Positions 38,511 to 38,769 of a DNA stretch of 64,000 nucleotides are shown here, one piece after another. The notes under the pieces are model-generated. The model saw only the letters and a list, made by a program, of their open reading frames with translations, did not search any database and was not told the DNA's origin. Positions within the stretch are counted from its first letter, which is position 1. Each line of letters begins with the position of its first letter. The DNA lies in IMG/VR virus record IMGVR_UViG_3300032053_000019, positions 1-64,000 of that record, one strand, 5' to 3'. The translations under genes were made by a program, and so were the position numbers. The DNA comes from a virus.

Positions 38511-38584
38511 GGAATGGTGGAGAAGTGACAAAGGCAAAGACATCCGAAAGGATAATCAACTCATCATCACCAATCCACCATTCC
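38511..38584 (+). ncRNA. Guide-like stem-loop unit 0 (orphan)
   Basis: ggaatggtgga/tccaccattcc stem; CA aaggcaaaga CA tccgaaagga TA atcaactcat CA; followed by a T tract. Confidence 0.75.
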
Positions 38585-38603
38585 TATTTTTTAAAGAAAT
38601 CTC

Positions 38604-38632
38604 TTGATTTTTGTTTTGAGTTGACTTATAAT
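38604..38632 (+). promoter_or_regulatory. Sigma70-type promoter P4 for the replication operon
   Basis: TTGATT-17 bp-TATAAT. Confidence 0.7.
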
Positions 38633-38644
38633 TATGACTCAATG

Positions 38645-38769
38645 AGGAAGGAGGCACGATGTCAGTCCTATTAAGTATCACCGCTAATGCGGAATTGACT
38701 TTCTCATCTTTGCCTCCTCAGGGATTGCTCGTGCCTCCTATCCTTCCTTTTCTTCGGAGTATAGTGTGA
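38645..38769 (+). promoter_or_regulatory. Structured 5' leader with a sequestered RBS and a 36-codon uORF (38659-38769)
   Basis: aggaggcacga (38649-38659) pairs with tcgtgcctcct (38729-38739); uORF stop overlaps the helicase GTG. Confidence 0.5.

Follow-up and report, generated by a model that had tools for sequence, protein, structure and literature searches.

The natural targets and the biological role of TIGR-Tas systems have been stated to be unknown, and short spacers and the location of most loci on context-poor metagenomic contigs have been given as reasons for the missing targets (Faure et al. 2025, PMC12045711; Xu et al. 2026, bioRxiv 10.64898/2026.09.09.750476); our search of the literature found no report of a natural TIGR target. 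The phage locus analyzed here raises this question in a concrete form. One of its guide units, U0, lies 1.6 kb away from the array and upstream of the promoter P4, and its two guide halves together resemble a site in the leader of the operon that follows. We analyzed a stretch of 64,000 nt of this phage (the window; IMG/VR record IMGVR_UViG_3300032053_000019, positions 1–64,000), and compared it with the rest of the genome and with close relatives, asking what U0 is aimed at.

The TasR protein, its array and the distant unit U0

The tasR gene (40426–41544, plus strand) encodes a 372-aa protein with a RuvC and a Nop-like domain, as judged from the structure PDB 9MTY and from alignments. A phmmer search of TasR against the PDB returned 9MTY (TaTasR) with an E-value of 2.5e-11, with both the N-terminal and the C-terminal parts aligned and D7 of TasR falling on the catalytic D11 of TaTasR. 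A search of the representative protein library gave 100 relatives of TasR. Among 19 relatives, the RuvC acidic residue D7 is invariant and E49 and D88 are present in at least 90%, while D91 is found among the closest four. These kept residues (D7/E49/D88/D91) suggest that TasR may be an active nuclease. The gene had been labeled IS110-like in the sequence-only reading, a label that gives way to TasR on the match to 9MTY; the Pfam families DEDD_Tnp_IS110 and Transposase_20 scored 21.1 bits (cut-off 29) and 19.8 bits (cut-off 21.3), both below threshold. An IS110 bridge recombinase was rejected on the same scores and on the nine single-loop units in place of a two-loop bridge RNA; neither element ends nor a sign of transposition was found, and the indel formed by the cassette is clean, with a phage gene on either side. 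Rfam gave no match anywhere in the window.

The TIGR-tasR cassette, composed of U1–U8 and tasR, occupies positions 40131–41789 on the plus strand, as delimited by blastn and alignment. A pattern-plus-stem scan of the 64 kb recovered seven units with outer stems of 14–18 pairs, all on the plus strand within 40178–41764 and none elsewhere. These are U1, U2 and U3 (cores at 40178–40215, 40261–40298 and 40349–40386, each with an outer stem of 14–15 pairs), U4 (40742–40779), which falls within the tasR ORF, where alignment shows an insertion following the RuvC domain, and U6, U7 and U8 (41560–41597, 41643–41680 and 41727–41764). U5 (41465–41502), with an interrupted stem, was placed by unit geometry and the covariance model. 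With U0 included, the nine units, all on the plus strand, read Y(A/C)-N10-C(A/G)-hairpin-Y(A/C)-N10-C(A/G), and the linker pairs 3/12 and 4/11 covary across them. The first base of the N10 segment is an A in 13 of the 18 segments and probably belongs to box C, which leaves spacers of 9 nt. The last bases of segments A and B are complementary in 5 of the 9 units (about 2 expected, P ~0.05), a weak hint that may point to a central overlap of the two target halves.

The part of tasR that contains U4 (40725–40800; TasR residues ~100–123) encodes a low-complexity insertion after the RuvC domain. Insertions are present at the equivalent place in five TasR relatives (P0003, P0004, P0005, P0015 and P0016), which may therefore hold intragenic units. 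Sequencing run X2 contains a 92%-identical tasR with another linker and other spacers, AAAGTCCGCT and AAAGGCAAAA, at U4, seen on loose contig ends only; this difference may reflect spacer turnover. The second of these spacers has an 8-mer, AAGGCAAA, in common with U0 segment A, and a target search with the variant spacers gave chance-level matches only. T-rich runs follow U8 and U3 (41764–41790 and 40386–40425) just before the RBS of the next gene, as for U0, and the units in general may double as terminators or processing sites. A blastn search with 38300–41900 against 50,697 phage records returned no match, and a search of viral contigs with the single TasR protein returned no relative. Seven distant TasR loci (L001–L007, ~30% identity) were set aside, as their unit geometry is not that of this phage, and none of the sequencing runs listed as containing this locus is an RNA run.

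U0 (38510–38585, plus strand) is located 3' of the stop of the ORF 38298–38507 and 5' of P4, and a superfamily-2 helicase gene (38766–40175, plus strand; Pfam ResIII/Helicase_C) stands between it and the rest of the system. Its predicted fold is a long hairpin (−29.4 kcal/mol, z −5.2) with a lower stem of 12 bp and a GUGA/UCAC stem of 4 bp. Both guide segments, each of 10 nt, lie in a symmetric internal loop, and a small apical AUCC-GAAA-GGAU hairpin stands between them. By unit geometry, guide segment A is AAGGCAAAGA (38531–38540) and guide segment B is ATCAACTCAT (38555–38564), both on the plus strand. The first A of segment A is probably box C, so that the 9-nt spacer proper would be AGGCAAAGA; that of segment B is probably TCAACTCAT. 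A covariance model built from U1–U8 alone and run with filters off on both strands of the window found U0 as the sole extra match (19.4 bits; E 0.018 on a rough calibration), with the next-best match at 12.4 bits. U0 has the geometry YA-N10-CR-hairpin-YA-N10-CR and the AGA/TCT-like closing pairs of the other units; in U0 and U5 the core is the same and the stems are interrupted. A scan for the U0 scaffold with free spacers gave no match, and a second copy of U0 was not recovered. The fold, the covariance model and the absence of U0 from relatives without tasR identify it as a real, if so far predicted, two-part guide RNA of a phage TIGR-TasR DNA-targeting system. Judged from their sequences, U0–U8 and TasR form a stem-loop TIGR-Tas system, which is a known kind.

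Directly 3' of the U0 stem lies the U-tract TATTTTTT (38586–38595, plus strand). Together they make up a stable hairpin followed by a U-run, the hallmark of an intrinsic terminator, which a simple terminator scanner missed because of the large loop. U0 probably doubles as the terminator of the upstream operon.

The P4 leader and matches within the phage genome

The sigma-70-type promoter P4 (TTGATT-17-TATAAT; 38604–38632, plus strand) is kept in the relatives by alignment, and the leader of the helicase-tasR operon extends from 38639 to 38765 on the plus strand. The consensus fold of the leader from five relatives has 33 pairs, 13 of which show compensatory changes. It comprises a long hairpin in which the purine run GGAAGGAGG is paired with CCTCCTATCC, followed by a U-rich run; the purine run pairs with CCTCCTCTCC. 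Within the hairpin, TTTGCCTCCTC is invariant in 5/5 relatives and looks like a second, competing anti-SD element. In the leaders of the window and of L016, L023, L025 and L027, two CCUCC elements could compete for one GGAGAGGAGG run. The leader as a whole looks like a transcription attenuator or a translational switch. A 36-codon ORF at 38659–38769 is not kept in frame among the relatives, so the leader was read as an RNA structure and not as a gene. Half A of U0 is the complement of the invariant anti-SD-like TTTGCCTCC element (TTTGCCT) of this leader and for this reason resembles a Shine-Dalgarno sequence with its spacer, while half B falls in the variable bases that adjoin the element.

The sequence-only reading had joined segment A to the reverse complement of segment B, with a 1-nt overlap chosen ad hoc, into the 19-mer AAGGCAAAGATGAGTTGAT. 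The matches that it listed in this genome are all present. In the P4 leader, the minus strand at 38697–38715 holds a mismatched copy of the word (14/19, with 13 contiguous nt at 38703–38715); the 13 nt lie at +64 to +76 from the likely P4 start. In this copy, half A matches at 9/9 and half B at 6/10, with four consecutive mismatches at positions 1–4, and the copy is one base shorter in half B than those of the relatives. On the plus strand, each match sits on a gene start. The early-gene starts with an RBS and ATG at 23729 and with ATG at 28906 carry 12-nt matches at 23720–23731 (half A plus TG) and 28898–28909 (half A plus TGA); the starts at ATG 26717 and ATG 28154 carry matches at 26709–26720 (12 nt, half A plus TGA) and 28145–28163 (15/19, with a 12-nt run at 28150–28161), and a gapped match is found at 36373. 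These plus-strand matches have the SD-spacer-ATG sequence GGAGGCAAAGATG in common.

Comparison with 20,000 shuffles of both halves over the whole 98.4-kb genome, a check that had been proposed with the original claim, gave 6 observed 12-mer matches against 0.19 expected (P 5e-4), so that the excess is real; the 13-mer match has P 0.034. Full-length matches of U0 (14–15/19) are ordinary, the other units reaching 14–17 of 18–20. The half A 8-mer AGGCAAAG occurs at 16 sites in this genome and at 15 in the relative G001; at the 16 own sites half B matches only 0–6 of 10 bases, 3 of which are the ATG. A 58-nt promoter-leader module (TTGACA-17-TATAAT) is present in three copies (23658–23715, 28829–28886 and 36305–36362), each followed by the same RBS-ATG motif. 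Three of the plus-strand matches belong to this repeated module (family D8), and the repeated early-promoter cassette with its RBS-ATG motif explains most of the repeated 12-mer matches. As half B is unmatched beyond the ATG, and given the published single-spacer and seed-mismatch results on TaTasR, the early-gene matches need nothing more than RBS-ATG composition. The complement of an anti-SD element resembles a ribosome-binding site, and this alone accounts for the matches at gene starts; on this composition we read them as by-products, a side effect of the predicted target.

A candidate target in sibling phages

Two close relatives cover both U0 and the cassette region: G001/L016, a complete 96.6-kb genome whose helicase is 95% identical to that of this phage at the amino acid level, and L023, with 96% identity. 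A third, L028, covers the U0 region and not the cassette region. By blastn and alignment, the whole block 40131–41789 is absent from G001/L016 and L023, and the ~100 nt holding U0 are absent from G001/L016, L023 and L028. A search throughout G001 found neither tasR nor any unit. As G001/L016 and L023 are without both, the occurrence of U0 follows that of tasR. Between the helicase stop and the RBS of the next gene, the TIGR-tasR cassette makes up a clean indel of 1.66 kb (compare L016 5365–5397 and L023 4273–4305), and the cassette-less joint, 40130 to 41790, is also found in a contig of run X4. At the same junction L025 carries an unrelated 394-aa ORF without a Pfam family, which was rejected both as a Tas relative and as the next gene of the window; the junction downstream of the helicase may therefore be a hot spot for accessory genes. 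A scan with the helicase start motif recovered only G001 again. The phage group comes from sediment metagenomes. Run X3 yielded one contig of the own-type allele (38578–38745, two differences) and a second that reads as L023 before position 38703, with a one-base uncertainty at the clip point. X3 thus contains own-type and L023-like forms together, and X4 the cassette-less form.

The reading of the two halves as one site follows published work on TaTasR. Its tigRNA1, with the spacers UGCAAGCCC and UUGCCUUAG, has a synthetic target that reads TGCAAGCCC and then CTAAGGCAA, which is A followed by the reverse complement of B, and the reported 8-nt 3' overhangs agree with this geometry. Single-spacer guides gave no cleavage, and a seed mismatch in either half blocked the cutting of both strands. 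Gaps of 1–2 bp between the target halves were tolerated, and overlaps were thought unlikely (Faure et al. 2025, PMC12045711). Both the joining rule of the sequence-only reading and its rule of tandem targeting on opposite strands agree with this guide-target pair, and the latter is further borne out by L023.

In L023, the sequence TCAACTCATCTTTGCCT at 2840–2856 agrees over 17 contiguous nt with the reverse complement of the 19-mer predicted by this rule. The match is homologous in position to the 13-nt match in the leader of this phage and spans 9/9 variable bases of A and, in half B, eight or nine (9/10 of segment B). Its two mismatches are the first base of each N10 segment, which is probably box C. 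The alternative that had been offered beside self-binding, a homologous site in a competing relative as the target of U0, is thus supported by a phage that has neither U0 nor tasR and whose match runs contiguously across both halves. On the leader strand of L023, segment A is complementary and segment B is identical, a pattern expected if each segment pairs with a different strand of the DNA. Over the 122 kb of relatives, junction-spanning matches of at least 17 nt have P 1e-4 when both halves are shuffled, 2e-4 when A is fixed and B is random, and 3.6e-3 when A is fixed and B is shuffled; once the nine units are allowed for, these values rise to ~1e-3 to 3e-2, according to the null. Mismatched pairings of A and B (72 tried) reached at most 13 nt and wrong geometries at most 14 nt in the relatives. 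For U1–U8, no junction-spanning match longer than 12 nt was found in the ~122 kb, so that this sample of relatives yields a target for one of the nine units, and a 17/20 match of U5 in the own genome is not better in G001. Eight exact matches to the predicted 18–20-mers in viral contigs were discarded; none of these contigs is related to this phage, and we read them as chance. A canonical contiguous 9+9 target is not present; the match at the L023 site becomes perfect if the halves overlap centrally by 1 bp, if the site is read as 9+8, or if there is an unsampled allele that is longer by one base.

The allele of G001/L016/L028 (L016 3932–3950; G001 69694–69712) matches at 15/19; each half has a single internal mismatch, which in both cases falls on spacer position 7. 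Position 7 is near the place where mismatches in TaTasR block the cutting of one strand only. This allele could be an escape allele, or the coincidence of positions could be chance (1 in 9).

Taken together, we consider it probable that U0 is a working tigRNA that guides TasR to the leader site of sibling phages, with the own allele spared by its mismatches. Other explanations were weighed against the same evidence. U0 could be merely the intrinsic terminator hairpin of the upstream operon, guide-like by chance and not loaded into TasR. Its strong stem followed by TATTTTTT, its distance of 1.6 kb from the array on the upstream side of P4, and the modest, roughly calibrated E-value of 0.018 all fit such a hairpin; however, U0 shares the exact unit geometry and closing pairs with the other units, it is lacking in just those relatives that have no tasR, and a single site is matched by its two loop segments together in the correct tandem arrangement, which makes a mere terminator scarcely probable. 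A very unlikely reading, though not quite as improbable, is the one first proposed, in which TasR-U0 binds the own P4 leader and the early-gene starts by partial pairing without cutting, and represses the operon or switches off early genes. Half A does match at 9–10 of 10 bases at four or five own sites just downstream of promoters, nuclease-dead TasR and TasA are published to repress transcription when fully matched, and TaTasR still nicked a site at which one spacer matched in full and the other at 6/9. At the own gene starts, however, pairing is limited to half A and the start codon, half B matching nothing further, and published single-spacer tigRNAs gave no guided cleavage, with seed mismatches in either half blocking both strands. 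As the catalytic residues are kept, stable self-binding would also risk self-nicking, and the likeness to ribosome-binding sites has a simpler cause, half A being the complement of the invariant TTTGCCTCC of the P4 leader. Autorepression or an early-to-middle switch through partial pairing at P1–P4 is accordingly not supported.

Coincidence of composition deserves more weight, and we still regard it as unlikely. On this account the true target of U0 is elsewhere, half A merely looks like an RBS, and in L023 one RBS-like site out of many happens to extend the match. The half A 8-mer does occur at 16 own sites and 15 sites in G001, fixing A and shuffling B gives at least 17 nt in 0.36% of trials, short spacers are known from published work to yield false targets, and the exact 19-mer matches in unrelated viral contigs confirm that chance matches exist in large collections. 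Against it, the 17-nt match occurs in a relative without the system, where its position corresponds to that of the own 13-nt match ~110 nt from U0, and no other unit, pairing or geometry exceeds 14 nt. The least probable explanation, to which we give almost no weight, is control by RNA-RNA pairing, in which segment A in the U0 loop pairs with UCUUUGCCU of the nascent P4 leader and shifts the balance of terminator and antiterminator without TasR. It is favored by the complementarity of segment A to an element invariant in 5/5 relatives and by the attenuator-like leader with its two competing CCUCC elements. Yet the pairing would be only 9 bp, and relatives with the same leader are without U0. 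Moreover, segment B is identical and not complementary to the adjoining L023 leader bases, which dual-strand DNA targeting predicts and the RNA-RNA model cannot explain.

Proposed mechanism and comparison with known systems

From the identity of the unit, its presence or absence together with tasR, and the match, all of which are observed, we infer binding, cutting and an ecological effect as follows, with targeting rules for this TasR carried over from a homologue of ~30% identity. The upstream operon has U0 at its 3' end, away from U1–U8, and the hairpin and U-tract of U0 would also terminate transcription there. Its two 9-nt spacers would pair with opposite strands of adjacent DNA and specify a 17–18-bp site between P4 and the helicase gene of close relatives. 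Half A would cover the invariant TTTGCCT, and half B the adjoining variable bases, by which self would be told from non-self. Sibling phages such as L023, without U0 and tasR, carry the intact site, and the own copy would be spared by its four consecutive mismatches, which include the seed region of half B. In a mixed infection, the sibling genome would likely be cleaved, given that TasR keeps the RuvC acidic residues, and the competitor would then be excluded or its genome repaired from the TIGR-bearing one.

The latter outcome would amount to RNA-guided homing, a possibility that we consider less likely than not: TasR-U0 would cut the sibling leader, and repair from the TIGR-bearing genome would copy the immune allele. 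With U0 ~110 nt and the tasR cassette 1.45 kb away from the site, such repair would also carry the guide and the nuclease into the sibling. If this were true, the TIGR system would spread in the manner of a free-standing homing endonuclease, with RNA specifying the site.

Targeting of sibling phages, our preferred reading, would make the L023 site a candidate for the natural target of a TIGR guide, a class of guide for which the literature searched names none. The guide-target pair comes with built-in controls, namely a matching sibling allele, a sibling allele with one mismatch per half, and the own allele with a mismatched seed. All three derive from sediment samples, in which carrier and target forms are found together, and with them the purpose of TIGR-Tas becomes directly testable with a few oligonucleotides. 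The case points to competition between phages or to homing, and not to host defense or self-regulation. As a natural case, it also bears on target geometry in a stem-loop TasR whose nuclease seems to be retained.

Among known systems, the stem-loop TIGR-Tas loci (PlTasA, PateTasR, CsTasR and BlTasA; Faure et al. 2025, PMC12045711; Xu et al. 2026, bioRxiv 10.64898/2026.09.09.750476) are similar in having one Tas protein and hairpin units with two 8–12-nt spacers each in short box C/D-like frames. Their outer stems are likewise variable and palindromic, their units are found on either side of the tas gene and within it, and some clades have a hairpin in the loop between the spacers. In contrast, the TasRs characterized there are nuclease-dead, whereas D7/E49/D88/D91 are kept here; U0 lies 1.6 kb away behind another gene in a terminator position; and no natural target has been reported there, while a candidate is available here. 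The dual-repeat nuclease TaTasR (9MTY) is the closest solved structure by sequence, with its first catalytic Asp, D11, aligned and a target that reads A plus the reverse complement of B. It differs in its 36-nt tigRNAs, regular dual-repeat arrays, CCA/UG boxes and contiguous 9+9 target, whereas this phage has YA(A)/CR boxes and long stem-loop units, and its best natural match implies a 17-bp footprint. The IS110 bridge recombinases share a distant protein kinship, visible as weak Pfam matches to both IS110 domains, and two-part guides in internal loops; unlike them, this locus has nine single-loop units that fit TIGR, and no bridge RNA, element ends or sign of transposition were detected.

The proposed role itself has parallels in other phages. 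ICP1 carries a CRISPR-Cas system against the competing element PLE, that is, a virus-borne RNA-guided nuclease aimed at a rival element in the same host. It differs in belonging to another protein family and in its single spacers with a PAM and its adaptation machinery, none of which applies here. The free-standing homing endonucleases of T-even phages (Seg and Mob) are encoded in one phage and absent from its siblings, cut the DNA of the sibling close to their own locus, and spare their own genome through sequence differences at the site. They recognize DNA through protein domains, whereas here the specificity would come from an RNA guide, and gene conversion is for this phage a proposal only.
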